This document shows positions 10,401-36,500 of a stretch of 64,000 bases of DNA, piece by piece. Origin of the DNA: Phoronis australis (taxonomy: Eukaryota > Animalia > Phoronida); the NCBI GenBank assembly GCA_002633005.1, contig NMRA01000091.1:322445-386444 (forward strand). Reading direction: 5' to 3'. The notes beneath the pieces were generated by a model. The model did no database searches. It was given only the letters and a program-made list of their open reading frames with translations, and was not told the origin of the DNA. Made by a program: the position numbers and the translations under genes. The first letter of the stretch is position 1; each line of letters starts with the position of its first letter.

Positions 10401-13400
10401 TGCGTAGAATTTTGAGAACTTGTTTCGCATAGGTACTATTGTCATTAATGTTTTGTCAATTAGAGCTAGCTGTTGTGGATACAATGTAATACAGCTTCAC
10501 TCTTTCAGAGTTGGTTGGGGTAAACATTAGAAAGCATATTATATTGGCAGAGGTGAGATTAAATTCTATTGTCAGGCCGCCATGTTGTGAGAATGTTCTT
10601 GACCTTTGCCTTCTTTCCAGGTGCATTCTGGGTGAATTCTTCACCAAGCGGCCCATCTTCCAGGCCAATCAGGAGATGGCTCAGTTGGAGTTGATCAGTA
10701 AAACATGCGGTAGTCCAACCCCTGCCGTCTGGCCAGATGTCATCAAGCTGCCTCACTTTCACTCTATGAAGTTGAAGAAGCAGTACCGACGTCGACTGCG
10801 AGAGGAATTCTCTTTGTAAGTGCTCCTTGGTCTACTTGTTGCTCGTCGTTAAGGTAATTAACGGTTGTGAGAAAACGCATTTAAATGCTAGTGATGGGTT
10901 TTCGCCTCAATCTTAGAGGCCCTTCATAAATTTGATCTTTTAAATTCAGTTGTCATTTATTGTTCAATTCTATCTAAGTTGGAAATGGCAGTCTTGGCAA
11001 GGAAATGCCTCAGTCGTGTTTCATAGGCTTCGTTACATTTCTTGCTTTGCATTGAACAGTAAATGGATTGGGCAAGTGCAGCTTCAACCTTTGACCTGCA
11101 CATTTCCCATGTGCCAGCCTGCTTCCTGTGTCAAGCCTGTTTGTCTGTGCTTTCAGCCTGCCCAAGCTGGCCCTGGACTTGATGGATCAGATGTTAGAAC
11201 TGGACCCAACCAAACGAATCAGTGCTGAGCTTGCCCTTGACTGCCCTTGGTTGTGTAACGTGGACCCCAACTGCATTCCACCGCCTGAGTACGTACACAG
11301 TGTTTCCCACTTTGGTCCACCTCAACTTATGGTCATTTGTCTTTTCGACAGATCTCGCTGTGGAATTTTTTGAGTGATGTTCAGTAAGCCTGGGACTGCA
11401 AACACACGCCCATGACAGCTGATAGTTCCTGTTCAAGGCTTGTTACTTTCATCCTACAAGCCACAAAATTAGTGTAAAAGCTACTTGTGGGCGTCTCAGA
11501 GTTATGACCAGTAATAACGCCATTGTTAAGGGCATTCAATAAAATGTGTCGTGATCATAAAACGACTTGATAAAACAGCTTCCAGCTCACTTAGTACTCA
11601 AAGTCAAATTTGAAATTATTTTTGGCATTTTCTGTAATTCTGTTTTGTGCAAACTCGAAGATAAGTTTCCAATATTCTGTGCTCGATGACATTATGGTTT
11701 ATGTATACAAGTTTCTAGTCCAAGTTTGCACTTGATGGTTTATAGATTTGAGCTACAAACTTGAGTAAAAATTTGAGATTTCTAGTTCAAACTCGAAATT
11801 CTTAGTTCAGATTCGTAACTTTTAGCATGGGATTAGACAGTTATTCACGCAAACCATTACGTACACGAGCAGAGAATATTACATTTTTATTGAGTTCATG
11901 CACAAGTAAAACAGAAAGCACCAAAAATAATTTCGAGTTAGATTTCGAGTAAAAAGGTTAAACCCCGGGTCAGGGTCTTAGTGTTGTTGGTTATTCCTGA
12001 ATGGAGAACTATCCATGAATTTTGCTGAAAACAGAAGTTTGAAAAAACTGTACAGAGGCATTTTCAGCTTGAGTGAAGATCGTGCTTACAGTCAGTCAGT
12101 TACCAATTTGTGAGAAAGATGTGTAATTTATAAAGGGTCATTGTATTTATTAGTTGTGTTGACATTTCTTGCTTTATGTTTTTTTTTTCTGACTTCTGTT
12201 CCATAGACTCTATGGTTGTGCTTTGTCTGTTTCCAGGTTGCCACGGGACCAGGATTGTCACGAGATGTGGAGCAAGAAACGGAAGAAGAGCATGCGAGAA
12301 GCCATGAAATTGGAGCAGGAGAGGGGTCGTGGGAGTGCAGGGTCAATTAGTGCATCTCGAGACGAAGGCTTAAGGAAGGGAGTGGATAGACCATCAAGAC
12401 CGTCTAGTAGGAATGCTTCGTCCACCTCCGTGTCTGGTGCTGGGTCGTCAAGTTCGACCAAGGCTGAAAAGCCAAGTTCCATCAGCAGCTCGTTGTTTTC
12501 GAAGGAGCCCGAGTCAATACCCGGCCTAGATTTTGGTAATGACGACAATTCAAAAATGGACTCTGAACTGGAGGTATCACAAGCTGGTGACCCCGTGGCA
12601 CCAGTAAAGCAGGAGTCTGACATTGAGGAGGGGACGGCAGACAACAAACTAGCAGCCAATCAGTTGGCAGGACTAGCCAGCCTGCTGTCATCTTCCAATC
12701 AGGGACTGAATGTGCAGCAGCTGGCACAGGTGCTCAACATTCCTGTAGACCAGACAACATCACAGCTGCTAGAAAGTCTCAACATGCAGCTGCTGCTGGC
12801 AGCTGCCGCCAAGCAAGTCCAGGAGAATACAAACAACCCTGCCCCAGTGTCCGATCTTCCAGCAGCAGTCAACCCCAGCCAGCCGGTTGTGAGTTCAGTT
12901 GGTCATTACAAGCAGCCTCCAGTGTCGTCCTCATCATCAAATGAAGGAGTGAAAACTGCGCTAGCTCAGCTGCTAGCACAGCAGGGTGTCCCTGTAAACA
13001 GCACACGCACGGCACAGGGAGCAGCAGAGTCTGCGTATTCCAAATCCATTGACAGCTTTGGACACTCTTCCGATCCGAGCACGCGCAATACTTTCAGTAC
13101 TGACCTGCTCTCCAGTGTACGGTCAACTTCATCTTCTCAGAGGCCGTCATCATTTGGTTATGAGGGAAATTACAGTCGGTACACTAACCCAGAGCCAGGT
13201 CAGGGGGCAGAGGGTCTCCATCTACCCAAACCTAATGAACCAGTGACAAGCCAAGCCATTCTAGACAGCCTGCGTAGTGATAGTCTGGACTCTCGTCAGG
13301 GCAATGTTCATAACAAGGGCTATTTCAACCAGTATGAGGATGGGCTAGGTGACGCTTCCAAGGGCAGGTATGGGTCACGACCTCCGCCGCCAGCGAGTAG

Positions 13401-13464
13401 CGGAAGTGGTGTCCAAGGCAGCTATAGGGGTGGATACCAAGGGGGGAGAGGGAACAACTGGTAG
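3896..13464 (+). CDS. CDK12: Cyclin-dependent kinase 12/13 (CDK12-like), spliced, 5'-partial: join(3896..4444,5236..5391,6131..6267,6498..6668,9042..9231,9687..9848,10621..10815,11157..11288,12237..13464)
   Basis: Manual exon assembly with GT-AG junctions and matching phases. RS-rich N-terminal part, [18 protein letters not shown] helix, [38 protein letters not shown], and the C-terminal extension [13 protein letters not shown] typical of CDK12/13. Single invertebrate co-ortholog, so CDK12 vs CDK13 is not resolvable. Confidence 0.95.
5236..5391 (+). CDS. CDK12: CDK12/13 exon, pre-kinase linker
   Basis: ttttcag| acceptor, HRSRYDRES...IRDLPMPP...MRKP, donor aa|gtaagt; phases match both neighbours. 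Confidence 0.85.
5914..6130. repeat. 43-bp tandem repeat x5 ending in a CDK12 splice acceptor
   Basis: Unit actcttgatattgcctagtgcattcattatatgcttgtaatcc at 5914, 5957, 6000, 6043 and 6086. Confidence 0.95.
6131..6267 (+). CDS. CDK12: CDK12/13 exon, kinase subdomain I
   Basis: [32 protein letters not shown]; atccag| and g|gtaaat. Confidence 0.95.
6498..6668 (+). CDS. CDK12: CDK12/13 exon, PITAIRE region
   Basis: [54 protein letters not shown]; aacag| and g|gtagat. Confidence 0.96.
8753..8925. repeat. 44-bp tandem repeat x4
   Basis: Unit ttagatgtggtttgaatggtgttcaagcacatgaaccatattgt. Confidence 0.95.
9042..9231 (+). CDS. CDK12: CDK12/13 exon, hinge and catalytic loop
   Basis: [20 protein letters not shown]...[14 protein letters not shown]; ttcag| and ag|gtaaca. 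Confidence 0.96.
9506..9598. repeat. 32-bp tandem repeat x3
   Basis: Unit agtgtctgctggttataccaagtacgtttatt. Confidence 0.9.
9687..9848 (+). CDS. CDK12: CDK12/13 exon, DFG and T-loop
   Basis: [54 protein letters not shown]; donor gg|gtaagt. Confidence 0.96.
10621..10815 (+). CDS. CDK12: CDK12/13 exon, C-lobe
   Basis: [44 protein letters not shown]...RLREEFS; ttccag| and tt|gtaagt. Confidence 0.95.
11157..11288 (+). CDS. CDK12: CDK12/13 exon, kinase subdomain XI
   Basis: [32 protein letters not shown]; tttcag| and ga|gtacgt. Confidence 0.93.
12237..13464 (+). CDS. CDK12: CDK12/13 terminal coding exon, C-terminal extension plus low-complexity tail
   Basis: ttccag| then [17 protein letters not shown], long S/Q/P-rich tail, TAG ending at 13464. 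Confidence 0.92.
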
Positions 13465-16400
13465 AGGGAACTTGCTGAGGGGTAATCATGCTTGTGGTGG
13501 ATAACGGGAACTAGTGCAGCGTTGAGTTGTTAAAATTGATGTTTATGTCTTGTGTAGAGTTTATGTGAGACTCGCTGGATGGAGCACTGTTGTGCATAAA
13601 GAGCTACGGTCATTCTACGTTGGATAAATAGTGTGCAACTAATTTGTTGAAGGTGTACAGTGTTGGATGAAGGATGACGTTTGTGTTTTATATGAGAAAG
13701 TGCAGCTGTACTGCTTTGGAGGAAGAACAGGACGTCATTTTGTTATCCGCTAAGTTTGGCACATTGTGCGTTGGATAAAGACTGATGATGGAAGGAAGAT
13801 TTGTTGTTGAGCATGGTGTTCAATAAAGGATGGCCATACTGTGCTGGACCAGGATTGGCCAGTTAGTTTGATGGCATGTTATAGTTGTACAGTGTAGACA
13901 AAGGATGACCTGCTCGCCTGTGCTGTGTGGCTTGGTTGCTTCTAAGTGACGGCTCCTGCCACTCACGTGCCTGAATTGTGTTCTGCTGTCAGGGCCCTGG
14001 ATGCCTAGATTTGGAGGCCGAATATCAGCCTGGTTCCCCTCTGAAAAATATTTGAAAAGAACATTAAGTGCGCCTTACCAGACCAAAAAACTCCTGTTGG
14101 GTGATTGAAATTTCCCGCAAAATCAGACTTAGTTTGAACTCACAGACATTCTGCCTCAGAGTGGTATTTTCCCCTCATTGCTCTAACTTGCTTCTTCAAA
14201 AGGCGCAGGTCCCTTTCCCTTAAGGTGGACGAGGACCCCGGCTGAACTGCTGATTTGATGAAAATGTTGCTTGGTAGGGACTGGATTTGAGTTCCTTACT
14301 GAAGATAAGAGATGGCAGTGTAGTTTTGATGCATATTGTATGAGTTTAAAGTTTGAACCTTTCTTTATTTCACATTTTGGTTTTGACTTTTTTGTAACGT
14401 TTTGCTAAATAATTTTTAAGTTGTTATGCTTTTCAGATATTGCGAAGGATTACACCATTCATTAAATTAAAAATTTATTCAATCTAAATGTACGGTAAAA
14501 AATACGGTATCAGTGTCCGTCATCAGCAGTGTTTCCTCACTGTCTCGCCTATATTTTCAGGAAGTTGATCTCGGCGTTCAGTTTTTGTTACTTTAGACAC
14601 CCCTAAGGCCTACTTCAGTAATGCAGGGATTGACATTGCCCTTGGAATAAGGATTCACAAGCTAACTTGCATAGTAATTGGTACCTCGATTTGAAAATAC
14701 CAAATGCATTTTACAAACATTTTTCTCTTGCTATTTGTGTTTTGTGTCTTATTTTACTCGTCAGTCCATTAGTTCACAAGTGCAAACCCCTGACAACCGG
14801 GTTTCTACATTTTGAAATGTGGCTAAATATCTTTCATCATACTGCTTTGTTTGTGGCTGTATTTCGTCAAAATTGCCTGGAAATTCAGTTTTTGCCCACC
14901 CTGACTAAAAGATTTAGCAGCTTAGTGCAGTAGTGTCAAGTCAATTCGTAACAGAATTCTACTGCATTGCTGATTTACCTCTACAAATGTTCCTTTTCAT
15001 TGCAAAATAATTAAATGTGCCAGTGTTGGATATAGTTGGACTAAGTTTTGTCCTAGTTTGTCCAGACAAATTTTGAAGACCGTATATCGTGAAGCAAAAC
15101 TACCTGTTGTTGCAAGCTTTTGGTGAAAGTGTGTAAGCCGTCGTTCCCATGGCGGATTCAAGCTACGATGGGTCCCTCCTCTAGTGTGCTTATGTATAGC
15201 TTATGCTGTTGAATACAGCCAGTCATGCTCAAAGGAGAAGGCATCAACACCAAAGCACTTACCCTCTTTAAACCTGTAAATGCATATCTTATAATTATAG
15301 TCTTTGTTGATCTAATCTAGGGGGCTTCATTTTCTGTTGTACTTAGGTTCTGTGTCTATGGTATTGCTGCCTCAAGTGTTCGTCTCCATTTTGTGTCGTG
15401 GCTGTAAGCATTTAAGGTTAAGTTTATGTAGAACCTTGTTCACAAGTCTGTATTTAGCCAAATAATTGCATAATTGGATATATTTCCTGAAAGTTGAAAG
15501 CCTGTATAATTTGATGTTTGGCTCTACATCAAACTGCTACTAATCTGGTCACATGATGATGTTGGTTTTGTAAAATTAAGCAAAAAAGAAAGGTACTTTC
15601 ATAGCAAAACTACGGTATCAATAACATGACCAAATTTCTTAGGTTTAAATGTTCAAGATGAAGGCTCAAAACCACTGTTACATTTTTCTAAATTATCATT
15701 CCGTTATAAGCAACTTTTTTCATAGAAATAAAAGTCCTATTTTGATAGCCAATCTTACAAAAGTGGACCAATTTGAAAACAATTCTTAACACTGTTGTGG
15801 AGAACGGTGCGTAAAACATGTTATCTGAAACTTTTGTGAATCCAATGAACCATTTGTCAATACGCTGAAATAAACACTGGAACCCCGAGTGATAAACCAC
15901 AGGTCTTTTAGATTGCTAGTCTAGTGTTCGATTCCCTGTTGGGGTTCTTGATTTCTTGTTTATTTCAGTGTTTATTTGATTCACTATTGGCCAGCATCAG
16001 CGTCTATATATTTGACAGATATGTTGCTCCGAAATTGGCCAAATTTGGACATTTGTCCAGGGTCCTACATAGCCATAATGATATTCTTGTACACGGGCAC
16101 AAGTTAGCCCACCAGTTAAAGTGCAAACTAGCCACTGTGGTTTCCTTAAGCGTTGATAGTTTCTGCATTACGCAGAATATTCACTACAAGGGGTAATGCT
16201 TAATAAGTGGTCAGTGTATATGTGTGATTGAGACTGGTGATGCTTCACATGATCGCCAGTCGTTGGATTACAACTGACCTCTTCAGGGATAAAACAGATG
16301 TGACAAGTGCAATGATATGGATTGTGGGAAATGGCCCCTTTTGTGGAGATGGAACAAATATGTGTCCAGTCACCTGGTGGCATCAAGGGGGGGTGACCAC

Positions 16401-18299
16401 AAGTCTACACTGATAACGCACGCATCAGTTTTTATCTACCTTTGGATTGATCATGTCGTTTTCATGTCAGTATTGTATATTGTATAATGCATTCTGTTAA
16501 GAAAGACCGGCTTTGTGTAAATAATTGATGTACATTGTTGGCTGTATTTCTTGTTCATGATTCTTCAGCTTTGTACTTATGTGATTGTATAGTGATTCAA
16601 ATGGAATACAGTTTAAGTTGTTCATACATCCATTGCCTTGCCACACTTCCTGCTTCACATTAGTTCTGCTCGTCAAGGTGAATGAGAGACTGATCGTTAT
16701 TCAGCAAGTTCTCTTTACAAGGCCATTTCGCCGTCATTGGCATTGTTGGACAGTGCTGTTGCTGTTTTTAGTCCATAAAACTACCACATAAAATATTTAG
16801 ATGTTGGTGTGATAATTCTACAGTTTAGTCAAACTATCACTCTACTACAACTGAGAAATGATGGGCTTCGTTTTCATATTATTTTGTAGTGATTCATTTG
16901 TGCAGTATTTACTAGCACGTTTTCATACATTCCAACATTCTTGTATTCAGGAATGTTCCATATTTCAATGAAAAAAATCTGTAATACAGTTTAAGTTAAA
17001 AAACGTAGCTTTTCTCATCGGAAAAACATCGCTCCTCTTTTAATGAAAAAGGCCATAAGTGCAACCTGTGAAGGTCATGTCTTATTGTGGGGATAAGGTG
17101 CAGTCTCCTCCAAATTGTGTATTTTTTATCCTTGAATATGTTTTCGAAAGTTAATGCGTTGACGTGTCTTCTTTTTATCCGAAATTTTCTTAAAACAAAC
17201 ATCTTTTTAGCCAAGGATTAGAACAATTAGTCATTCACACATGAGTGACCTAAATATCTTGCTAGCCGACTTACTAAATACTACGTGCTTAAAACAATTC
17301 TGACTTACTAACCGTGACTTCGTCTTGTTTTATTGGCTTGTGTGAAAATAATTTTTTGTAAATTTTATGAAATTGCATAGTGACACTAATTTTTACATTT
17401 CACTCTTTGTAGTGACACTTGCAGCAATACATAATTAGGCCCTTACTTGTGGTAAATTTCAAGTTAACATTATTTTTAGTTTGAGGTAGCGATTCTAGTC
17501 CATGAAACAATCGATGAACTTCACTTTTATTTCTAGTAAATAACACACAGGTGTCTTGCATTTTTAGAAACAGTTTTCTCCACTGAATTGCAGGCCTCAA
17601 ACTGGCTCTCAAGTGGCCATCGCCCAAAAAATACTTGAATACCAAAAGTGTCTTGTTAGCTAGTTTCTGGTGCCCATTGCCTGTAAATAACTTTTTTTTT
17701 ATAATTTGTGCCAGCACTGTGCCGGGGGGGGGGGGTCTTTCGTTAGGAGCAGTTGGGAGGTACATCGGCCGTTAACTCTGGTATTGTCCCCTGTGGCACT
17801 TTGCTCTTGGGTATCGTCTAGGGTGGGTATTTTGGCAGCTTTGTGGTATTGCCTTGAGTAGGTAAATGAAAGAAATGGCCTCTGCAGGGGGAGCAAAAGT
17901 GATGTTGCGTTGATTCGGTTTTTAATCATTTCATGTTGTATCTCAATCATACAGGTGTAATTGGTGTGGATTTTGAATGTGGTAACACCCTGTACCCACA
18001 GTGTAGAAGGAAGCCGCCTAGCTGTATTGTTTTGATACCGTTAGTTATAATTACCAAGGAGTAAGTTTTAGCTGTAGATGATGCTGTTCCCAAAGTGTTG
18101 AGTTGTAAACAAAACACTGTAGCTGTGAAAAACGTCACAAAAAACGTCACACTGGAAGTATATTAGGCATCATGCTGTCATGCAGTGTTCGGTGTTGTTT
18201 CTCTAAATCCCCTTTATGGATATTTGTGAAAATTTGCAGACAATCATGTTCCTATCGTGAGGACAGCATGAACAAATTGTTGGACGGACATGGCTTCTG

Positions 18300-21200
18300 C
18301 TGTGCCCCCTAGTGGCAATTTTTATGTGCCCACATATTTTGGAATTTTTGCACCTCCGTCTACTGGTGTGCCCCCTAGTAGCAATTTTTTTACGTTCACC
18401 TCTGTATTTTCGGAGGTCCTCAACGGTTTCTCATAAAACTTAGCTGTTAGGCATCCATTAATGAGATGACGCTATTCTTCTTATCCCTTTTTGGATGCAT
18501 TCGACGTACTTTGAGCCACCTAGTGGCCATTTTTACTGCCTTTCTGTCAACCAAACCGCTTTAGGGATGATTGTGAAAACTTGACACGTATGTTCTTGCT
18601 GTGAAGAGGCCAGCTGATGATTTTCCGACGACTTTGACTATTGTGGCACCTCCCAGTGGCAGTGTTGTTTGTGTTTGCACCCATGGTTGCATCTCCTAAA
18701 CTATACAGGATCTTTATTAAATGTTGCAAGTGTATTTATATGAAGTTGACAACAGATGATGACAAGTTTCGGGTGTATCGGACTACCGGTGTGCCCCCTA
18801 GTGGCAATTTTAGTTTTTTTTAGTTTACCTCTATCTTCAAAGGTCCTCAACACACTTTCAGAAAATTTGCCAGATAGGCATCTATTAGTGAGCTGCTGCT
18901 ATCCTCTGGTTTTTAGATTGATTCGAGGTATTTTGCACTGCCTAGTGGCCATTGTTTTTCTTTTTGAGTCTGTTTTTTGGCGTCTGCCCCTCTGTCAACC
19001 AAACCACTATAAGGGAGATTGTGGAAATTGGCATCTATGTTCCTACTGTGAAGAGGATGGCTGGCGATGATTTCGAATGACCTTGACGACTGCGGTCCCT
19101 TCCAGTGGCAGTTGTTTTTTTACGCACGTGGCTGTATGTCCTAAACCCTCTGCAGGATATTTATTAAATTTAGCAACNCAAGCTGGGTTTCATCTTCAAA
19201 GGTCCTCAACACACTTTCAGAAAATTTGCCAGATAGGCATCTATTAGTGAGCTGCTGCTATCCTCTGGTTTTTGGATTGATTCGAGGTATTTTGCACTGC
19301 CTAGTGGCCATTGTTTTTCTTTTTGAGTCTGTTTTTTGGCGTCTGCCCCTCTGTCAACCAAACCACTATAAGGGAGATTGTGGAAATTGGCATCTATGTT
19401 CCTACTGTGAAGAGGATGGCTGGCGATGATTTCGAATGACCTTGACGACTGCGGTCCCTTCCAGTGGCAGTTGTTTTTTTACGCACGTGGCTGTATGTCC
19501 TAAACCCTCTGCAGGATATTTATTAAATTTAGCAACTGTATTTATGTGTTGTTGACAACGAGCGACGATAACTTTCAGATGTATCCGACAAACACTGTGC
19601 CCCCTAGTGGCAATTTCATTTTTCCTGTTTTCCTCTTTCTCTGAAGCTGTTTATTGGGTTTTTATGTAATTTGCTAAATAGCTTTCTATTGAACCGATGA
19701 CATGTTCCTGTTTTCGGAAGGATTCAACAAATTTTGCGCCATCTGGTGGCTGCTCATTAGTCCATTTTTGGCAACCACCCATCTATCAACCAAAGCACTC
19801 CCACTCTAAGGATGATTGTGAAAATTGGCTTATATGTTCTTAGTGTGAAGAGGACAGATGTGGTGCCCTCTAGTGGCCTTGTTATTTTCATTTTTACATC
19901 GTGTCTTCTGCTTCCTGCTGGTTGAAATCAGCATTTAGTTCTGGTAATGCCCAATTTAGTGGGAATGTTTATAATGAGCATCTCTTGTATATGTTATGCA
20001 GGTGTTGGGCACATGTCACCGCTCAGTGTTGGTCTTGGTTTCCAGTTTGAAGTTGGCAATTCTGTCCCTGCGTAGGTCAATCGTAATTCTTGTAATTATT
20101 AGGAATCGCTTGTTCTTTCAGCGTCATTATTAGAAACAAATGAGCCGTGTTTGCCTATGGTTTTCATCTTTTGGTAAACATTCTTTCTAGAGTTTTTAAG
20201 GATATGTTACAGAAATTGGGAAGACAACGCTAATAATGAATAAATACTCAGTGCACTTGGAAACGTAAACTTAGCTTTATACATTAAATACCTGAACTCT
20301 GCAATGTATTATAAAGGACTATATTTTAATATTCGTGTGTTGGCCCAACTGACCAAGCTGGGTTTCATTTTGAGAAAAAATAAACGCAGCCGGTATGGTA
20401 CACGTAGCAGACGTGGGTGCGTCTCTCGGATGGGCCCATTGCACTGATCACCATTGTGAGAAGGATCTAAGGATGTCAAAGAAGATAATACGTACAGAAA
20501 ATAATATGGTTGTGCTGTTCGGAAGACAAAGGTTTTGTCGTCACAAAAGTGGAGTTTACAGTTTCTCTTACATTTTGGTCATGGGACAGAAGAGATTGTG
20601 GATAGAGGTAAGAAATTCATTTTATGCGCCTACATATTTAAAAGTGGGTGCATATTGCCGTCTTCACTGGGCATCCGTTGCTATATCTCCTAAACCCCTT
20701 GCTGGATCATGAGATTTGATAGATGTGTTCCTGTGGGGCTGACCAGACAACTACGAGTTTCAAACTGATAGGACTACTGCTTTGCCCCCTAGTGCCAGTT
20801 ATATTTTTTTACATTTGCCTCTTGTAATCTATGGAGTTTCTTGATGGATTTCAATGAAATTTAGCAAATAGGTTAGAATTAAAGAGACTACGGCACTTTT
20901 CCATTTTCGGACGGATTTGGTATATTTTGCACCACCTGGTGGCCATTTTAAAAATTTTTGGCTACATGTTTGACATCAGTCTCTTACTCCACCTATCCAT
21001 GCAAAGGATAATTTGAAAATTGGTAGATCACGACTGGTGTTGATTTTTCGTACAGGTTTTACTAAACTGGCACCTTCTAGTGACAATTTTGTTTTTTGCC
21101 TCAACGGCTGTATCAGCTTTGGGCTAGTCCACGTCGCCCTGCATTGCTCTTGTTGATTGTATTGCATAGGTGGACTTAGGGACCCCTATGGACATATCAA

Positions 21201-24200
21201 AAAGCACTGGTATGCCATATGCACCGGTATCCCATCTTCCTTCAAAAATTGTGGTTGCCCTTGGTAACATCCTAGATCTGCCCAATCGTTCAGTGCCGAC
21301 ATTCAAACTGTAATCCATAAGTGTACAAGGACACTTGAGTTGCCTCAAAATTCAACCCTGCCTGGTGGTTTGGGTAACTGTCCTAGTTCTGTTGCACACC
21401 CAGTAGAATTAATGAGGAACATAATGTGACAACCATTTTGGGTTTAAAATCACATTTCTTGTTTCTTTGATGAATACCGGCAAATTTCGAGGTGCGCAAA
21501 CTGGTTGAGTTGCCCAGTGAGGGTGTTAATGTAGGATTCTTTTCATGCCAATTTAAGGGACATGGATTTGCTATCAGTGACCTTAGTTTTGTTGATAATA
21601 TAGTTGCGGACTTCCATAGAATCAAAATTGCATTTTTTTGTTTTTAACAAATTTTCAATTTTGAGAATGCACAAAAAGTAAGAATGTTCGATTAGAACTA
21701 AAACAAAACTTAAACATTCAGATTGCTGCAGCTATTAATCTCTGAATTAAGAAAAATAAAATCCACATCCCTGTGTTGTATCCAAAATAGATGTCGCCAT
21801 AAGTCTGAGGTTAAGTGTTCAAACATGACATGTTACACCAAGACTTGGCTAGGAGAGGTGCTTTTGTCTCTTAAAACATCAAAGGACTTCTGGCAACAGT
21901 AAGGTAAGGCCCCAGCCAAGCAGCAAGTCGAGCCAATTTATAAAGACATGTCCCAGTCAGTTGAGAGTGTAAATCTTTGTTAGGAAATAGTTTGCCTGTA
22001 CTTTTTCCCACTAGATTAAGTTTACTTATATTAGACATGAATAACATGGTACTCCATCATTTGGAAGGTCATCCCTACTATGTACAAAACATGTATAAAA
22101 ACATCTATTTTATATCTAAATTCTAATTGTCTGAAAACAATGATATCTTGACTGCAAAAATTGTATTAGGTTGACAATATTCGGGACTTTTGTTGTTTTT
22201 GGAGACTTCCTTTTTCAATATGAAAAATTAAAAATACTCCCAAACTCTTCAGAGTATTGCTCTATAATTAACAGTTTTTTTTAGAACATTTATCATGTGG
22301 TGATTTTTCACATGTTTTGATTTCTTTGCCAAATAAAAACATCACCGGCTGAGGTCAATGTTTTTGTTTCTCTGCCAAGCTTGAGAATGAAAACTAACTA
22401 AAGCTTCCGACTTTTTGTGTCTTAGTATGTTGTAATCCTGTTTATAAACACCATAAGTGCTTTTGGATTATTCACCAGTGAATAAGTTCAGATTTTTTAA
22501 AAATGTGATTACTTACTAAGGTGCACTGTCATAAGATTAATTATAATAAACCACTTTGACTGGAAATAAGTATATCAGTGCTGCGTAGATGAGCATCCGA
22601 CATTTGAATTTGTTTTCCAAATACTTTGATGAATTAAACTTTCACAATTTAATTCATAATTTCGGTATAATTATGATGAGAATATAACTGCAATCTAGGC
22701 AGGGCTTTCACCTAGTGGGTGCATATTGCTGTCATCTTTGTCATCCACAGCAGTATCTCCAAAACTCTTCACAGAATCTTGATGAGATTTGGCTGTGCCC
22801 CCTAGTGGCAATTTTAACTTTTTTTACTGTTGTCTCTATTGGATTTTTATGAAATTTGGTAAATAGGTTTCAGTTAAGGAGACCGCATCAACTTTCCATT
22901 TTCGGATGGCTCTTGACGATTCTGTGCTGCCTAGTAGCCATTTTTATAATTTTCGAGTCAGTTTTTTGACGTGCACCTTTCTAATGTCCAAAGCGTTTAA
23001 AGAGTCATGAAAATTGACAAGTGTGTTCCTAATTAGTAGACCGCAGCTGACGTATGGTTTGATTACTCTGACGCCCCTAGTGGGGATTTTGTTTCATTTT
23101 GCGTCCGTGACTGTATCTCCTTAACCTTTTGCAAGTTATTTGTGGAATTCGGCAGATGTGTTTCTATGGAGCTGACAACAGACGACGAGTTTAAGACCTA
23201 TCCAACGATTGGTGCATCCCCTAGTGACAATTTAAGTTCTCCTATCTTCGGAGTTCATTGATGGATATTTATATGTGGACGCATATGCCATCATCTCCAT
23301 CCGTCCGGCATCCGCTGCTCTATCTCCAAAATGCCTTGACGTATGTTCATGAAATTTTGCACATTTTCCTTCCGTGGATGAGAGACGGCATGAGCAAACT
23401 TTCGGACGGATCCGACTACCGTTGTGCCCCCTAGTGGCAGTTTACGTTTTTTTATGTTTACCTCTGCATGTTCATAAGTCCTGAAAGGATTTTCATAAAA
23501 TTTGAAATATAGGCACCTATTAGTGAGGTGATGCTAACCTCACGTTTTCGGATGGATTCGACCTAGTTTGTGCCACCTAGTGGCCATTTTTACTGTTTTC
23601 GAGTCTGCTTTTTTGCGTCCGCCCTTCTATCAACCAAACCGCTCAAAGGATGATTTTGAAAATTGGCATGTATGTTTTTACTTTGAAGTGGACGGCTGAC
23701 GGTGATTTTCTGAAGACTTCGACTACTGTGGCACCTCCTAGTAGCAGTTTTGTTTTTTTGCGCCTATGGCTGTATCTCCTAAACCGTTTGCAGGATCTTT
23801 ACTAAATTTTGTAAGTGTATTTAAATGATGTTAACAACAGAGGACGACGACTTTCAGATGGATCTGGTTACTGGTGTGCCACCTAGTGGCAATTTTTTTT
23901 TTTTACGTTTACCTCAACGAATTTTCATAAAATTTGGCATACCGGTATCTATTAAGGAAGTGACGCTATCTCTATGTTTTCAGATGGATTCGACCTAGTT
24001 TGCACCACCTAGTGGCCATTTTTACTGTTTTCGAGTCCACCCCTTTATCAACCAAACAGCTCTAAGGATGATTGTGAAAATTGGCATGTATGTTCCAACT
24101 ATGAAGAGGACGGTTGACGATTTTCTGACGAGTTCAACTACTGTGGTGCCTTCTAGTGGCAGTTTTGTTTTTTTTTGCGCTCATGGCTGTATCTCCTGAA

Positions 24201-25920
24201 CCATATGCAGCATCTTTACTTAGTTTAGCATGTGTATTTATATGATGTTGACAATGGACGACGATGACTTTGTGGCGGATCTGACTACTTGTGTACCCCC
24301 TAGTGGCAATTTTAGCTTTTTAAGTTTACCAGTCTGTATCTTCAAAGGTCAACATATTTTCACAAAATTTGGTATATAGGCATTTATTAGTGAGACGACA
24401 GTATCCTCCCGTTTTCGGATGGATTTGACGTAGTTTGCGCCACTTAGTGGCCATTTTTACTGTTTTCGTGTCCACCCCTCTATCAACCAAACAGCTCTAA
24501 GGATGATTGTGAAAATTGGCGTGTATGTTCCAACTATGAAGAGGACGGTTGACGATGATTTTTCGACGACTTTGAATACTGTGGCGCCTCCTAGTGACAG
24601 TTTTGTTTTTTGCGCCTATGGCTATATCTCCTGAACTGTTTGTAGTATCTTTACTAAATTTAGTAAGTGCATTTTTTTATGATGACAACTCACGGCGACG
24701 ACATTCGGACAGATCTGACTACTGGTGTGCCACCTTGTGGCAATTTTATTTTTTTACGTTTACCTCTGTGCCTTAACGTATTTTCATAAACTTTGGTGTA
24801 CAGGCTTGTGTTAGTGAGGTGACGCTATCTTTATGTTTTCATATGGATTGGACCTAGTCTGCGCTAGCTAGTGGCCATATTTACTGTTCTTGAGTCTGTT
24901 TTTTGGCGTCCAGCCCTCTATCAACCAATATAGGATAATTGTGAAAGTTGGCATGTGTGTTTTTACTATGAAGTAGATAGGTGACGATGATTTTCTAATG
25001 ACTTCAACTACTGTTTTTTTTGCCCATGGCTGTATCTCCTAAACCGGATCTTTACTAAATTGAACAAGTGTGTTTATATGATGTTGACAACGGATGACGA
25101 CGATTTTCGAATGGATCTGATCTGACCATTGGTGTGTCCCCTGGTGGCAATTTTAGTTTTACGTTTACCTCTGTATCTTCAAAGGTCCTCAACGGATTTT
25201 CATAAAATTTTGAATATGGGCACCTATTGGTGAGATGATGCTATCCTCCCGTTTTCGGTCGGAATCAAGGTATTTTGTGCCACCTATTGGCCATTTTTGC
25301 TGTTTTTGAATCTGTTTTTTGGCATCTGTCCTTCCATCAACCAAATCATTCTGAGGATAATTTTGAAAATTGGTGTATATGTTCTCATTGTGAAGAGGAC
25401 GGTTGATGGTGACAACTTTGACTACTGTGGCGCCTCTTATTGGTAGTTATGTTTTGTTTTGTTTTATGCCCATAGCTGTATTTCATAAACCCACTGCAGG
25501 ATCTTTATTAAATTTAATTAGTAAGTGCATTTATATGCAGCTAAAAACAGACCATGACGACTTTCAGGCGGATCCAATGAACAGTGTGCTCCCTAGTGGC
25601 AATTTCATTTTATTCTGTTTTCCGTTGTTTGTCTGAAGTTCCGTGACGGATTTCTATAAAATTTTGTGTATAGCTTTCTATTAAAGAAGCAATGACATGT
25701 TCCCGTTTTCGAGTCGATTTTACGTTTTTGCACCATCTAGTGTCCATTTTTATGACAAATAAACAACCCTAAAAGCACACCAATTGCGATGCATTCATGG
25801 GTGCATTTCAACGCTCCACGTTGCTCTTATGAAACCTGGTAGTTAAGAATCCATTAAGGAAACAACAATGTCTTTCCATTTTTGGACAGATTTGATGTAT
25901 TCTGCACCACCTAGTGGGGA
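18300..25920 (-). promoter_or_regulatory. Array of ~35 co-oriented CTCF-consensus-like motifs
   Basis: + strand gccccctagtggc / ccacctagtggcc / gcgccatctggtggc / tgccctctagtggcc, which read CCACTAGGGGGC, CCACTAGGTGG, CCACCAGATGGCGC and CCACTAGAGGGCA on -. Spacing ~145 bp. Binding is not demonstrated. Confidence 0.65.
18833..19536. repeat. ~345-bp near-identical direct duplication around n at 19178, probably an assembly overlap
   Basis: 18833..19177 is nearly identical to 19192..19536, far more similar than the other array units. Confidence 0.85.
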
Positions 25921-28829
25921 TTTTTAGTCTTAGAGGCCATTTTCAATTTACTTGCATTGCTCCTTTTATTGGGAATGTTTAAAATATTCATCATCCCTTG
26001 TATCTGTGCTCTGTATGATGCACACGGTGGCCACATATCAACACTGGGTGTTGCTCTTGTTTAGAATAGTGTTTCACATTATCATGCTTCCTCTTGACAG
26101 TTTATCTTGTTAAAGGTATCCAGTTGAAAGCAAAAATTGTTACCCACCCCCAAAATGAGTCGTATGTGATGTCATCACCTTTCAGTAGCATCTTAGGGCA
26201 CCTCGTGTGCAATTCTGGCTGTGTTTGTGAATGAAATTGTGAGCATTCTAATCATGACAACAACTGTACACATTTAGAGTCGGAATTTTGTAGAAATATT
26301 GCTGAATCATTGAAAATATATGATAAGTCACCCAGATGAGTTTATTAAAGCTGTAAACTGGCTGCATTGTGCCATTAAATAAACTTAAATTTTGATTTAA
26401 ACCACTCTCTGTTAAAAAATAGGTCTTAATTTGATATATGGTTTTGGAGTTGGAAAGAAATGTCAGCTCTGTATTATTGGAGACCATGCACATAAGTGGC
26501 CTGCTTTGAGAAGTCAACATGTTGAGCCTTGTGTCAAGTAGTAACGAAGCCCAGAAATCACCTCAATTTGGAGTGTTTAAAATGGCACAAAGCTTATAAA
26601 CAACAATGAATTTTTGGACAGTGCAGAAAATATATTGACATTCAAATGGGGAAAAATTTCAAAACTTGGTGAAAACTTGTCAAGTTTCAATTCCTAACCA
26701 TTCAAGAATGTTGAAAAACAAGGATTCATCAACTTGAATCATTGTTTTAACGTTTTGTGATAAGGTTTTTTAAAACCTTAGTTATTTTAAACTGTTCACA
26801 ATTTAACATAAATGTCATCAATCTTCCTAAACGAAAGTAGTATTTTAAAAAATTTGGTAAAATATCAATAGTTAAAGAAACAATATTCCTGACAAGTGCC
26901 GTAATATATTTTCTCATTTTCTGTAAATGATAAGTTTACCGTGGTAATGCTTTACAATTTTCAAATTCTGTTCTGTAGCTATCATCGTACAATGTTTTGA
27001 AACATATTTTGCTTGTTTGTCAGATAGTGTTTGAAGCCTATGAAAATGAAAAAGGACAATTCTTATTATTTTGTTCAAAATTGGTAAGAATTTTACCCTA
27101 CAAAATGTTAGTTGGCCTAATGTTAAAATGTGTTTAAAACTGGTCTTAAACACCCAGCGACTCTCGGTTGTCCCTGCCGTATCAGTGAAGCAATTAAAAA
27201 AATAATAATTTTTAGTTGCTGCAAATCCGAAATGACCTTGATAGTAAATTTATTTGCTTCAAGAAACTTAGGTGTTTAAGTGGCCATGTTGGATTTAGCA
27301 AGCTAACACACTCTTATAAACACTTGTAAGGGTTCCAGAAGTTCCATGATAACAAATCGTTAATAAGCAAGTCTTTGACATCAAGTATTCCATGTTTGTG
27401 TGATTTACAGCGGTTCATTTTCGACACAATACTCGTTCTTTTAAACTTTTGGCAATCTTCAACCTACTTCATATTCACATTGTCGCCATCAGTTGTGTTT
27501 TTAACTAATTTGAGCAAGCAATCACAGAGATAAGGAGTTAGCATGCAAGTTCCACTTTAAGCGCCTAGTTTTTCAATGTCAGTACACCCCACATCACAAG
27601 TCAAAAAATTGTAAATACTGGTAGGGGTATTATTATATTAATGTTAATTGTGACTTATATATTAAAGTATATTTCAAACATTTACCACTTTATGTAACTT
27701 TCAATTATTTGTAACAATGTGGTAAAATTAAATATATTGTAGTCAGAAATGCCATTCAAAAATATTTCTGGGCATGCACGCACCCAGCCTTCAATTTGGG
27801 GGGGCTCGAATTCTTGACAAAACAGCGGGCGGACTAAAAAAAAAACAGGAGCACCACTGTGAAGTACGAGTTTGCACTTGTTTAGTGGACTTTTTCCCCA
27901 TTTTCTCGGGCTTTTTGTCACTTAAGGGGTGGACCTTTTTTACCCACTTCACCAAATGGGGAGAGGCTCATTCAGGCTCTAGGACTATAATGTAGTCTCA
28001 TCAAATTGTTGGTTTTTATTTTTCAAGTGATTCTAACATTGCTGTGAATGCGCACAACTCTTCCAAATATTCGTTAGCAGCTATGGCCCAAAACTTGTAA
28101 ACGGCAGAGCTTCATAATAGATGCGAATTATATTTTATGAAGGAAATGAGAAAAAATCATATTTTGCACCAAGTTGGTGATATTTGTAAAATCAATTGCT
28201 CTTGGAAACAAAGCATACAACTGTCTGTGGAAATATTTTTTAGATTTGAATATCTCATTATTGAAAATTATAGATTTTGTACCTGTAGGTCTAGTCTTTC
28301 AAAACACTCACTAACAGAAGCTGTCAAAATTCAAGGATACCCAACCAGTCATAATCACTGTGCACCCGTTGTCATAAATTACGAAGACACTGTGTGTGCA
28401 TAGTGTGGGTGAAAGGTGTGGTGTTATCCAAGAAAGAAGTTTTTGGCGTCGTTGATGCGGCATTAGGTATAAACTTGTCCTTCGATGACGCCTTTAACTC
28501 GGTATATAATCAACTTGACAGTTGAAGAAAAGTGAAACAAGCTCCTGGTGTGTGTGACTGACTTCTTCTTACATGGGCCATGTCCATGTTCGGGGGATTC
28601 AATTTTGACACTAAGCTCAAGGTCAGCGGAAGAGAGTTATTTGAATGTTAAATCATTCTTTTCTAGGCATTTAATAAAAAGTGTGTGTTGACCATAAAAG
28701 TTAGAAGACAATTTTTGCCTATAAATAAATTTGTTGCCATTTCTGACCGTTATTTGCTATCTACCAGATAATTATTTAATGTATTCCACATATTAAGTGG
28801 TTCCAGTGGGGTTAATACGAGAGAAGCCA

Positions 28830-30432: not shown

Positions 30433-30573
30433 TCACGCAAGCTTAGTCACATAATGTTCCAACTTAACAGGGAGTCCACCAGCGTTGAGTTGGTAAAAAT
30501 CCACCAACTGAATCAGGTCTGCAAACTTTGTATTGCCATCTAGTGAGTAATACGTTTTTCCATTTTCCACAAC
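30433..30573 (-). CDS. GRB14: GRB7/10/14-like terminal coding exon, SH2 end
   Basis: [46 protein letters not shown]; tttcag| acceptor, TGA at 30435-30433. Confidence 0.94.
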
Positions 30574-33500
30574 CTGAAAGAATAGGAAGTGTCAAGAAAT
30601 GTGATCATGTCACGAGCACACACACACACACACACACACACTGTATAGTATGTACAATTGTAAAGACTGCATCAGGCTGACAAACTAGAGAAGGGAAAAT
30701 GATTAGGCAATTGCACACTTTGTAATTTAATGTAAACTATATTTCACACATATGGCTATTGGCCAATAGTGCTAAGAGGGTTGAGAAAAAATATTTTCAC
30801 GGCACAGCAACCGAGGGTAATAACAGTCTCCAAAATAAAACCTGACAGTGTGTAGTTTAACATATTTACACCACATATTAAGGTTTTAATCCACATTTTT
30901 TGACAACTACCGTGCAACAGCCGTTATTATACTGGTGTATCGAGGCATAAATGGTATAATACATATAATACGTTCATAGATTTCATTGAACGTGTTGTGT
31001 TCATCGCATTCTTGTACAGCATATCTCCCAGTCTTAGTAAACAATTTATTTATGTGCCACAGTGACTTTTTACTAGTCCGATGTGAGAGAGCATTACTAC
31101 AGTACTAACATACGTACCAAATGGTCTCCACAGTTCTGTGGTTTATATGTCTTTATTTGTCATTAAAAAAACAGCAAAATTGATTTTCACCTATTTATTA
31201 TTATATCTATCTTGGCTAAAAACCAACATAGTCACCTTCCAATTCATTTCCCTTATCAAACACTCCCTGTTTATCAGTCTTACTCTGTAACTTTCAACTA
31301 AACATGATTAGCTTACAAGAGTGGTTATGATCGCCACCAAGTAGGAACCTACTTATCCCGCTCATTATCATAATTTATGTCAAAACCGAGGGTGACATTA
31401 AGCGGGTTCCCCAGCATGAAGGACACGACGGTGTGACTAATGTCAACATCTATCAGACCTCGGATGAAACTCAAATGTTATGCATGCTGTCTCAGATATA
31501 AACCAACTATGGATGTTGACTCAGAAATAGAAGACATAGTTCAACATAATACTGGTGGTGCTTTGCGCTATTTTGGTTTAAGTTTCGGCCTCATCACCAA
31601 ATTGAAAAAAAAAACTTTCAATACTTTATTTCTTAGAAACAAACTTTTAAGTTTGGGTCGTAATTTTGTCATATCTACATTTATGAGTTCTCTAAAAATT
31701 GACGACGGTGTACACCTGTTTTTGCGGTGTCTTTGAAAAATAAAATATTCCGATATCTTATCTTCAGGCAATTGTCACTAGTTTCCTCCGTATTATCCAA
31801 CTTTGGTTGGCATTACTTAAAACAGTGCTCAATCCAGATATTGACTATTAACAGAGAAATTCACAGCAATTTAACACGATTCAAGTTTGACAACTTCTCA
31901 CAAAATATGCTAAATTGCCAAACATTTGTAACACTTCACGTGAATTAATCGGTAGCCGAGAGGAGAAACTGTGCATCTCGAACCACCGAAACTATTTTGT
32001 GACAGAATGTGAAGACACAGTTTTAGCTGAACATTGCCGTTACCTTTACGGAAAATTCTAATTACACAATAGCAGCCAATAGAAGCAGTTTTGGGGCAAA
32101 AACAACAAAGCATGGTTCAGCAACCGTTTAAAAAGTATGTGTTGTTATCTGGCAAAATTTTGAATTTAGGTCCGTCACTACACCGAGTATACTTAGCCCA
32201 GTCATACCAGTGCTATTTGGAAATGCTTGACTCTAAGACTGTGAACTAGAGAGAGGACGTAACAACCATTCATCATTCGACTTTCACGAACAAGGAACAG
32301 CCTGAAACAGATACCAAGGTTTAACAACTAGATGTAGGTGTTAAAATGACAAAATCTCGCATTGAAAATTACCAACTAGAGTTTGGAGCAAACAATTAAA
32401 CAAAACCTCATACAATTTACTGCAGCTATTATTATATACTGTATCTCTATGAATATCCTATCTTTGTACACAATTTTCATGACTCCAAGCAATTATTCAG
32501 CTAGACAACTACCACAAGATGTCACTACTATGACTGAAAATGACTGTTATTTGTCTACTCTAGTAACCCTACCCAGGTGACCTTGACCTACCCATCAACC
32601 ATCCCGTGCTTGGCCAACAGTTCATTAGCCTCATCCCTCGAGACACCATGATGGAACCATGGCTGCATCATATTGAGACTGTTACTGACAACGAGGCCTC
32701 GTCCCAGCGCGGGGCTCATGCTTCCCGATGTGTTCTTGCTGCTACCAGGAGTCGTCGGCAAACACGTCGGACGGGTAATTTTTTTCTAATAATGAATAGA
32801 ATACTAATACTCAATACCATAAACGCAACAAATCTTTTCAAAATATCTGGTAGAACGGGTGTATAGTTTCCATCTTTTAAGTCATTATTTTATCATCATT
32901 GTATTACAGTGGAGATTACAGAGACCACTTAAGTAGAACAAGTAACCAAAATGCAGCACGTTCTGACATAAAATACCGAAAATTATTTTGCAAAATTTTT
33001 GGAAAGAACAATTGGCATTAACTTTTTTCAGGTAGATTACGACACTCGTAGGATTATCACAATACTAAAAAATTATTCGTTAATTAATTTTTTGAAATAC
33101 ATTCTTTTAAGCCATTCACTGATTCGTATGACACAAAATTTCTAATCTTCAAGAGCAGACATTTTTTCTACCATGCAGCCCCAAAATGGGAGCTGGTTTA
33201 AACCTCTCACCCGCCATTGGAGACCTTCCTCTATGGCCACACCTATTGCCTCATTGGGGTCATCCACCACTCGACCTCCGTTGACCCCTGTGAAGTCCAT
33301 GGCAACACGCTCTTTGGGATCGGCACCGTCCTATACATGACAACAGACAGAAATTTTTCTTTTAAGCTACAACATTGCACTAAAAGAATCAATTTTAATT
33401 GCTAATAAAATCCAAAGGTATTCTAACGAGAAGCCATACAACAAGACTAAACATGTGGACAATTTGCTGCACGTGATTAAACTTGCCTATGAACCACTCT

Positions 33501-36500
33501 ATGGTAAGTGATTTTTTTATGCACATGTAGCAAAATGTCATGATATTTTCAATATTAAAAAAACACCTGGGATCATTGACTTACCTGTTACCAGACATAT
33601 AGCATTCTATAACTGCATTTTCAACAAAGTTTTGCTTACTTTATTTTAAACTAATCCACTTAATAATGAGTTTCACATAACAACACTAATGAAGTCCATA
33701 ATTTTCTAGTGTTTTCATTTTTGCACGAAACACATGGCAATCGATATCTGCCCCAGTTGAACTGTTTTTTACATGAACTTCTAAGACAATAAATGTCACT
33801 GTGTCAGTAACAAGGAAATGACACAGTGACATTATATAATCAAGAAGAAATGACAAATATATTTAGTAGCCCAGACAGGCTAAGACAAACAACTGATGAC
33901 TTTCCCAAATGTCACTTGCCAGATATGTCATCCTGTTGTTGAAGATGAATACCATTTCATTTCATTTGTTTAGTCTCCGGGTAGTGCAATAAATCTATAA
34001 ACAAGGCCTTCAGCTAGGATAAATTCACAGGCGCTAACACAAAATAACAAATACAAATGGTAAACGTCTCTAAAGTCCCATTTTTCCATCAATTCAAGCA
34101 AAAGTGGAACAAATCAAAAATTATTAAAATAAAATAATTCCTGGCAGCGTTTTGGACAACAATGCATAAAGCATAGCATCTGAATATTCCTATGAATCTG
34201 AGAAGCCATTTGTGAGATATGATGTTCAGAGGCTAGCCAACTGCGAAATTTTTCTAAGGCCCTATTTAACTTTAAAGCTGGCTAGTGTTCAAGCATGCCA
34301 CTACTGAAAAATTGATCTAAACTCATGAGACTTAGTTACATATAATCCCACGTCTGAATGTAAATACTTACAGAATTTGGTGGAGAAGATCCGTTACTTA
34401 AGTTGTTTAGTTTTTCTTGCCTCCTCAGTGAACTTCTGTAGTTTTCTTGTAGCTGTTTGCCATACTGCAAAGGAAATGCTGATAACTACTTTAAAGTGCA
34501 CAAATTAAATCAGTAACAAGGCTGGTTCAATAAAGCCTTTATGAATGGTTTCAAGAAACTGACTTTAAAGCGCAATACTGACAAACTTCCATGGTTGTTA
34601 TAGAAAAGGGTGATGCCAGTTACTTTAAATTAGTAGAAGGTAAAAAATATACCAAAATTATAATTAGAGACGCCAAATGCATGATTGACAAACTTCCCCA
34701 CACCAACATGACTACGGTTCCTCTGTCTACCTTTGTACAAGATCATGTACGTTATTCAAGTTTGACATTCTCCGATTTTACCTGCTTTTTCACTACTAAG
34801 GCAAAGGAAAACAGAAGAAGAAACTGGCAGGAGGGCAAGACAATGACCCTCTTCAAAATCTGGAGGGGCGTTTGTCCTGCAAGGGTGGACGTCTCCCCAG
34901 TGGAATGACGTTCTTTCAGCATGGGATTGTTTCGGCAGACAGCATAGCATCTAGTACAAACTAAACTGGTCTTTCCAGTGTAGATGGGAAGACAAAGCAC
35001 GATAAATTGATTCTAACTTAAGTGTGAACAGGTATGACTTCACTGTTATTTTATGCTGTACTTGGGTAGCATGTTTTTCGTTATCCAAAATTGGTTATTA
35101 TATGCATTGACAATAACTCTTTTGCTGCCATGTGCACCTTTCGCCAAGTTACTCCAGCACTCCCTAATAAGGATGCAATCTGTGAGTCCTTTCATAGTTA
35201 TTTGACCCACTCAATCCTCAATTTCAAGAAGGATAACAACAGCTTAACGACGTCAGTAGATGAAGGCAATTTCACCAAATCACAAAATTAAATTTAATGA
35301 AAGCCAGGCTTTTCAATTTTTCCAGTCTGAATGACTTACTTGTCAAATTACAATTAATGCAATGGCCTCTAAACTGTCCATCACTGAGGTCTAATTGACT
35401 CAAGTTCAAAACAATTCTGATTCAAGATCCGAAATTGAAATGTCAGACGTGAGACGAGGTATGCACCGGTGCCAACGGGATGTAAATTTCAACCAAAACC
35501 CTTAACTGACTGTTGATATTGTTTTCCACCTGAAATCTTGAATACTTCACCTGGTACATACCTGCCTCAGCATATGAAGTCATAATTTTTGAATGTCATA
35601 AACAGAATGTGATTGCAACCAAGGGTACACTGGTCACTTATCCTGATAATATATTTGGTACTTGGAAATGCAGTTCTAAAAACACTTGCGGTGAAAGAAT
35701 TAAGGAAGGTTCAAATGATAATTACATGTTTTAACATTAAAACTAGTCAAAACATGGTAAACGATATTGATGACGACATAATTCCCAAGAAGAATGCCGA
35801 TCCACTGAACACGACATAATCAAAAGAATATCATCTAACAACAAGGAACCATATCGACTAATTCAGATCCACATACTGACAGACGGAAGACTGCCGACAA
35901 AGACCTAATAATCATGATCTAGTTATTATAGAATTAAAAAGATTGTATCCTTACAATATTCATTGTGTGCCTTGCATAGCTAACTAAAACAGCGATACAG
36001 TAATAATACAAACCTTCGCTAGCCTAATACCAGCGAGCCAACACATTCTTGTCTTTTCGTCTTCCGCACAAAGGCATTTCATCTCTTTGGGCTCCAAGGA
36101 CGCAGTATTGTCTGGCTAGAAAGCACAATGTTTCTAATCAGTTCAATGTCACTTGTTTACCTAATTACCGTCACACTTAACACCTTGTCATAATCAGAAT
36201 TCTTATTATTTTATTGTTGAAAGAGCTCGAGAAGAGCAGAAATTATCACAATTTGGCCAAAAGCATTGCTCCAATGAGTCACACCCTTAATGTCATAACT
36301 CAGATGGTACAATGTGTCATATTATACTGAGAATTACCTTGGTGTGAATGGGCTCTAACTAACTCCAGACAAATTGTCCATTCACAAGTGAATAAAAGCA
36401 AGAACACAACTATACATCAGGACTAGTTACTGAGTATTATACTAAACATTATGCATTTTTTGATAGGAATAAACTTGGTTATTTTTGCAGTACATTCAAC

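Follow-up and report, generated by a model that had tools for sequence, protein, structure and literature searches.

Transposons that carry binding sites for CTCF, a host architectural protein, have been described in vertebrates by chromatin immunoprecipitation sequencing (ChIP-seq): examples are mammalian short interspersed elements (SINEs; PMC3368268), hAT-Tip100 elements of lamprey (PMC5504073), and non-autonomous DNA transposons of zebrafish (PMC7182764). None of the 40 families in the zebrafish list is named as a Helitron or Helentron, and some of the unclassified families could be (PMC7182764). Here we describe a repeat cluster from the phoronid Phoronis australis. We analyzed a window of 64,000 nucleotides (contig NMRA01000091.1 of assembly GCA_002633005.1, positions 322,445 to 386,444 of the forward strand); positions below count from the start of this window. 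At 18300-25920, it contains about five old, partly nested, non-coding insertions of non-autonomous Helentron-type elements (HINEs), which we call E0 to E4. Nearly all of their ~145-bp repeat units carry a box that resembles the CTCF consensus. As in the vertebrate cases, mobile elements would have spread CTCF motifs. Those cases rest on ChIP-seq, while here there are many sites per element, the host is an invertebrate, and the sites are predicted from sequence.

Tandem repeats of CTCF sites are known from mouse DXPas34 (PMC3149622) and from CTCF/BORIS-bound repeats in K562 cells (PMC5007689). As in the phoronid cluster, these have one site per monomer, the sites are co-oriented, and the motif is conserved across diverged monomer types. 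However, DXPas34 has 30-34-bp units at one locus, while the units described here are of ~145 bp and belong to a dispersed rolling-circle element. A Helitron-class element was also tied to insulation in C. elegans, where periodic An/Tn clusters (PATCs) that derive from a Helitron minisatellite were proposed to be mechanical barriers (bioRxiv 10.64898/2026.08.08.743475). PATCs act through DNA mechanics with a 10-bp period, and the species lacks CTCF; this periodicity is weak in our cluster. Helitron-marked sperm loops reportedly occur in Xenopus tropicalis as well, going by the title of a 2023 paper by Shi et al.

The hallmarks of HINEs are a 5' subterminal inverted repeat (subTIR) with an inverted repeat nearby, a microsatellite, central repeats, a 3' subTIR with a palindrome, and insertion into a T-rich target without target duplication (PMC7492417). 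The Pacific oyster element Cg_HINE, from the same paper, shares with our cluster the 5' subTIR and its partner, 140-180-bp units in fixed orientation, the 3' subTIR and palindrome, the T-rich target, and the absent target duplication. Cg_HINE also has a short GTCC-type microsatellite, of which our cluster may retain eroded remnants. By eye, rows of Cg_HINE cluster CL9 also have a similar ATTTTCAT..AAATTT stretch. Unlike Cg_HINE, the phoronid elements have an array of three-type trimers with the box in each unit. We searched the table of oyster HINE arrays for strings (3.35 million characters from 13 clusters, with cells covered up to 400 characters). Twelve 9-mers from the CTCF core occur just 7 times, and related strings occur 0 times, so within those cells the box is not a general feature of HINEs in the 13 oyster clusters. 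As the oyster arrays nearly lack CTCF-core words, the box is specific to the family in the Phoronis australis window, and HINEs do not need it.

Molluscs, annelids, and rotifers are reported to have CTCF, and flatworms to lack it; its role outside vertebrates is described as open and spiralian data as scarce (PMC10658182). We searched the literature (most subscription papers and the bioRxiv supplements lay outside the search) and found no HINE with a CTCF motif in each monomer of its core repeat. What is new here is a HINE family with a CTCF-consensus box per monomer; transposon-borne and tandem CTCF sites were already known in vertebrates.

A CTCF-consensus box in the repeat units

A first-pass annotation of this DNA had described dozens of CTCF-like motifs that all face the same way. 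With up to one mismatch, its pattern matches the 64-kb window 21 times, always on the - strand and always within 18302-25917, while shuffled sequences have 0.11 matches on average. We trained a matrix on these 21 sites and used it for locating sites only. It gave 37 matches in the region; we excluded the match at 22705, which overlaps a terminal inverted repeat. Every one of the other 36 sites is on the - strand, as the annotation had it, and 34 are unique if we discount 19294 and 19454, which lie inside a probable assembly duplicate (Table 1).

As the reference for the CTCF core we used CCASYAGRKGGCRS, which is the consensus printed in PMC6746451. Among the 36 sites, 9 match this consensus exactly, 12 have one mismatch, 4 have two, and 11 have three. 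In the rest of the window, there are zero sites with at most one mismatch to it. When one trimer of units was shuffled while preserving its dinucleotides, 0 of 20000 shuffles had an exact match; shuffling the GC-rich box alone gave an exact match in 8 and 3 of 300000. The twelve CTCF-core 9-mers occur 11 times in the 7.6 kb cluster and 2 times in the remaining window. Overall, the sites are predicted CTCF sites whose match to the consensus is far above chance expectation, which agrees with the annotation. Type A sites are the closest to the consensus (11 of 13 have at most one mismatch), followed by type B (8 of 13). Type C is the poorest: 2 of 10 sites have at most one mismatch, and 7 of 10 have three.

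These three monomer types come from clustering the flanks without the motif, and they follow each other in the order A, B, C to give a trimer of ~435 bp. The 28 spacings between adjacent sites that fall in the 120-165 bp class range over 126-161 bp, with a mean of 144 bp. This fits the annotation's description of ~145-bp monomers of three types with one motif in nearly each. The spacers of the three types are just 53-58% identical to each other. The window has 19 matches to a profile of the trimer, which are confined to the + strand of 18206-25942, and about 5200 of the cluster's 7621 bases lie inside a monomer. The core trimers are 74-83% identical to each other. The trimers of E2 and E3 are diverged subfamilies (60-72% identity to the core trimers), and the box is still kept in them.

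About five HINE insertions, partly nested

The annotation had treated the region as one array. A single continuous 7.6-kb array is ruled out by motif-free gaps at about 20040-20620 and 21155-22700, by the separate ends of the elements, and by nesting: the cluster is about five pieces with ends of their own (Table 1). The nesting is clearest for E4. If E4 is excised in silico, the flanking parts of E3 rejoin into a colinear A-to-B monomer, with zero bases gained or lost. E0 is recognizable by the stretch 18200-18321, which shares 70% identity with the initial unit of E4 (23323-23443), and by an alignment of the 5' ends; we sought a continuation of E0 beyond E1 and did not find one. Within E1, a 345-bp duplicate around the N at 19178 is probably an assembly overlap.

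Table 1. Features of the cluster and the nearest coding exons
Feature	Position	Strand	Description
CTCF-consensus-like 14-mers, n = 36 (34 unique)	18302-25917	-	Located by pattern and matrix, compared with consensus; type consensuses CCACTAGGGGGCAC (A), CCACTAGGTGGCGC (B), CCACTAGGAGGCGC (C)
E0	18140-18318	+	Decayed 5' part of HINE-like element: its first unit, plus a single type A motif at 18302-18315; approximate start
E1	18319-20040	+	HINE-like element or composite; ABC units, terminal A'/B' variants, 11 sites (9 unique)
E1 ends			5' subTIR ~18321-18333; 3' subTIR ~20005-20014, then decayed palindrome and T-rich end
Duplicate of 18833-19177	19192-19536	+	1 mismatch in 345 bases, either side of single N at 19178
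E2	20620-21154	+	Short diverged HINE-like element; units form a single A-B-C set with 3 sites; 3' end decayed
E3, left part	22705-23270	+	Inverted repeat 22715-22725; units A-B-C-A, 4 sites; split by E4
E4	23271-25828	+	Best-preserved element, nested in E3; 16 sites
E4, 5' end			Inverted repeat 23275-23285; CCGT-type microsatellite remnant ~23296-23311
E4, interior and 3' end			Five ABC trimers (one C motif deleted), terminal A'B', 3' subTIR ~25797-25806, palindrome 25809-25823
E3, right part	25829-26061	+	Remainder of split monomer, type B site 25904, 3' module
CDK12/13, last coding exon in reading frame	12193-13464	+	Stop 13462-13464, ~4.8 kb left of cluster
GRB7/10/14-type gene, last coding exon (end of SH2)	30433-30565	-	Stop 30433-30435, ~4.4 kb right of cluster; upper coordinate approximate

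The Helentron-type carrier that the annotation had suggested is borne out by 5' and 3' ends of the HINE type, which we found across the copies. The 5' subTIR of 11-12 bp with a partner 1-12 bp away is present in E2, whose intact subTIR (20621-20634) and partner (20644-20654) form an 11-bp stem with a 10-base loop (predicted fold, -8.8 kcal/mol). E1 retains the 5' subTIR only, and E3 and E4 retain the partner inverted repeat only. After the 5' end, where HINEs have a short GTCC-type microsatellite, there are eroded CCGT/CATCCG stretches that may be its remnants, and these are clearest in E4. The central tandem repeats have a fixed orientation relative to the ends. At the 3' end, a subTIR with a palindrome is present in E3 and E4 (stems of 6 bp and, as read from the sequence, of 5 bp); the palindrome of E1 is decayed, as is the 3' end of E2. 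The 6-bp stem of E3 is perfect (26039-26053) and is followed by a T-rich end. The 5' and 3' subTIRs of E1 are inverted copies that agree at 9 of 10 bases. T-rich insertion without a target-site duplication is seen in one case (E4 in E3), within this single assembly. These features are spread over several copies, and none retains them all. Since single copies are incomplete and the core trimers are 74-83% identical, these are old copies.

We also considered whether the cluster contains a coding gene or an RNA gene. Among 73 frames of at least 45 codons in and near the cluster (of 101 listed), there were 0 matches to Pfam, and an Rfam search had zero matches in the cluster, which rules out both.

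Conservation and decay of the box

The motif was said to be the best-kept part of the monomers. This holds across types: with the spacers aligned without the motif, the three type consensuses agree at 12 of the 14 motif columns, versus 50 of 130 ungapped spacer columns (binomial p = 4e-4), and the best 14-column window in the spacers has 10 of 14 identical. It also holds within type A (conservation of 0.92 in the motif vs. 0.77 in the flanks) and type B (0.86 vs. 0.77). It does not hold within type C, where the motif is at 0.84 and the flanks at 0.81 (p = 0.18), and where the motif ranks 50 of 146 windows.

For tests of substitutions, we used 20 copies of the core family. At G/C columns outside CpGs, the motif has diverged at 9.2% of positions (16/174) and the flanks at 17.5% (134/766; p = 0.006). 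Motif CpGs are not protected, with 7 of 11 deaminated as compared to 52 of 110 in the flanks. In the core copies, this decay broke the consensus in 4 cases and was tolerated by it in 3.

Several results weigh against a role for CTCF in keeping the box. All p-values given in this section are optimistic, as monomers were located by the motif and the copies are not independent. The deficit of changes at G/C columns falls to p = 0.07 if we consider private changes with strict exclusion of CpGs, and at A/T columns the motif and the flanks do not differ. Fixed columns of the CTCF consensus are not better kept than degenerate ones (11/147 vs. 10/107 diverged, p = 0.65). The two motif columns that vary between types are both degenerate in the published consensus, which speaks for CTCF, but this would arise by chance with a probability of 15/91. 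At one position, the type C consensus departs from the published one, with A in place of G/T. A TGCAG-like word, from the upstream second CTCF motif, lies within 25 bases at just 1 of the 34 sites. (This upstream motif occurs at a subset of vertebrate sites and is not needed for binding.)

Overall, recent substitutions show no preference for changes that CTCF would tolerate. The core trimers have diverged from each other, motif CpGs have been deaminated as freely as flank CpGs, and type C sites are mostly broken. We conclude that conservation is old and at the level of the family, that the boxes are decaying in place, and that there is no clear CTCF-specific selection at the locus.

Why was the box kept?

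The explanation that we favor, and to which we would give about an even chance, is that this is a HINE family whose box, one per ~145-bp unit, was kept by selection on the element family via predicted binding of CTCF, and that the box is now decaying. In the first-pass annotation, recruitment of CTCF by the element to its own advantage had been the second option. We take this up as the best reading, with the benefit as a guess. A CTCF site would have entered the ancestral monomer a single time. As the monomer then split into three types, master copies may have spread better if their boxes were intact. As for the benefit, CTCF might keep the array accessible or protect it from germ-line silencing; that we have to guess at this step counts against the explanation. 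A nucleosome core is 147 bp, so at a spacing of ~144 bp, a nucleosome would not fit between two bound neighbors, and full occupancy would give a nucleosome-poor tract. If type A sites alone were occupied, there would be one bound site per ~435 bp. Any effect on the neighboring genes, CDK12 and GRB, would be incidental.

If this explanation is correct, then a transposon has kept a site for a host architectural protein despite deep divergence of its own repeat. The family would also be a natural experiment, as one copy can hold as many as 16 CTCF motifs that all face the same way. Should loop extrusion be blocked by CTCF in this lineage, then Hi-C should find one-sided insulation at the insertions, and its direction should flip with the orientation of the element; otherwise, there should be none. 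If CTCF does not bind, then the cluster is a pile of decayed HINEs with nothing unusual about it.

The alternative that survives best, although we think it unlikely, is that the box was kept for another function and resembles the CTCF site incidentally. It could be bound by the Helentron transposase or a different zinc-finger protein, or it could form a DNA structure. In favor of this, substitutions do not follow the CTCF consensus, and oyster HINE monomers keep two conserved segments (PMC7492417) and have GC-rich stretches. Oyster HINEs are mobile without the box, however, and an exact match to the consensus is rare even with the GC richness fixed (the 8 and 3 of 300000 above). As for structure, a 5-bp hairpin is possible for the type B box, but one of its pairs is broken in 20 of 34 sites, with zero compensating changes, which rules out the hairpin as the cause of conservation. 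Also, the 10-bp periodicity of A/T tracts is weak, with a ratio of 1.13-1.23 vs. 0.92-1.0 in controls (without a significance test).

We also doubt, perhaps slightly more, that a CTCF site was captured once and then amplified passively, in which case the apparent conservation would be due to homogenization, lower mutability, or the use of the motif as an anchor, without selection. The private-change test (p = 0.07) and the mostly broken type C sites are consistent with a passive origin, and so is the recurrence of CTCF-motif tandem repeats in unrelated sequence. Against it, the box survived while the spacers (aligned without the motif) dropped to 53-58% identity, and the box was kept in E2 and E3 despite their divergence from the core trimers.

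A bolder version of the explanation that we favor seems rather improbable to us: that the family is a mobile multi-site insulator. Each unit would be a functional CTCF site of graded strength (A strong, B medium, and C weak, with a strong one every ~435 bp), and selection on the element would have kept these sites. Each insertion would plant a nucleosome-poor barrier that stalls cohesin, spiralian boundaries would be largely written by rolling-circle transposons, and this pile, between CDK12 and GRB, would be one of them.

The least probable alternative, and quite unlikely in our view, is that the host has taken over the cluster as a boundary between the 3' ends of CDK12 and GRB, with selection at the locus keeping the sites, which is close to what the annotation had proposed: the cluster is truly between convergent genes, 21 sites still have at most one mismatch, the G/C columns of the motif are about half as diverged as the flanks, and repeat-borne CTCF sites can serve as barriers in mammals (PMC3368268), but the cluster consists of insertions that are separate and have gaps between them, decay of motif CpGs breaks the consensus as often as it is tolerated (4 vs. 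3), fixed columns are not favored, and in mammals about 5% of CTCF events are at chromatin borders (PMC3368268).

The proposal of a boundary also leaned on the uniform orientation of the sites. The sites face the same way because units were copied head to tail and because the elements are on the same strand (due to insertion into T-runs). Orientation reflects at most five insertion events, two of which were into T-runs of the same family, so co-orientation is no evidence of selection. A boundary is thus not supported: co-orientation is a by-product, and recent substitutions have no CTCF-specific pattern. The annotation's premise that CTCF acts in an orientation-dependent manner is sound for vertebrates. 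For other animals, a study of echinoderm boundaries reports enrichment of the motif with no orientation pattern (PMC13317027), and a study of an annelid reports mostly single motifs, located at promoters, with no directional arrangement (PMC7854359). Another paper on annelid chromatin conformation does not mention CTCF in its main text (bioRxiv 10.64898/2026.05.18.725834).

Neighboring genes

The cluster lies between the convergent 3' ends of a CDK12/13 gene (3855-13464, + strand) and of a GRB7/10/14-type gene (30433-43622, - strand), as the annotation had placed it. For the frame of the last exon of CDK12, there were 12 protein matches, of which the best is from Lingula (38%), followed by nemertean and mollusc proteins. 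The GRB7/10/14-type gene encodes RA, PH, BPS, and SH2 domains. On both strands, that is, coming from each gene, AATAAA signals precede the cluster. The cluster does not lie within an intron of GRB: this was ruled out by the SH2 exons and the stop codon at 30433-32660. In the human genome, CDK12 and GRB7 are close together on 17q12 and CDK13 and GRB10 are on 7p, so the linkage here would be ancient.

A direct duplicate of 1.77 kb (476-2240 and 2234-3966, 95.6% identity), around a single N at 2233, includes part of the CDK12 region. It is probably two haplotypes that the assembly set in tandem. Five minisatellites with units of 26-68 bp lie in or near the two genes (914-1167, 5914-6129, 8749-8929, 39816-40195, and 46334-46675). 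None of the five has the motif at up to one mismatch.

CTCF-like repeats in other sequences

For close relatives of the family, an exact 21-base pattern has 0 matches in metagenome contigs. A pattern of two motifs matched 11 loci in metagenome contigs, 1 in genome contigs, and 0 in viral contigs. We read the single locus from a genome contig, which is GC-rich bacterial sequence, as a chance match. Outside of the motif, none of the 11 metagenome loci or the bacterial locus resembles the window. Because the loci were selected by the motif, only extra sites count. By this measure, 5 of the 11 loci (L002, L005, L007, L009, and L010) hold 3-6 sites with at most one mismatch, versus 0.003-0.03 expected (7 of the 11 loci were shuffled).

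In L002 (378-868), an unrelated tandem unit of ~147 bp, with 74-79% identity between copies, has an exact match to the CTCF consensus in 3 of 3 units. Two other loci, L005 (135-752) and L007 (2495-3111), have diverged units of ~150-160 bp, with co-oriented matches to the CTCF consensus, beside HINE-like ends with a GTCC-type microsatellite; by our reading, the motif units lie outside those ends. L007 also encodes a Mutator-like/exonuclease/PML-C frame (1-1347) with animal relatives. L010 (672-890) has a 33-bp minisatellite with seven co-oriented CTCF-like 14-mers, within an open reading frame.

Other repeats in the window

Two pairs of short dispersed repeats are in the class with 71-73% identity. 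The first is at 20375-20452 and 50040-50120, and its first copy is in the gap between E1 and E2; the second is at 15547-15658 and 52470-52581. Farther right, an inverted pair of 1.5 kb (53769-55222 and 56451-57923, 71% identity) has decayed frames and is possibly two copies of an element or the arms of a DNA transposon. Another inverted pair, of 307 bp (58766-59071 and 59375-59680, 85% identity), is probably a relic of a foldback element or of an element like a miniature inverted-repeat transposable element (MITE). It encloses a short frame that, by eye, begins like a THAP domain.

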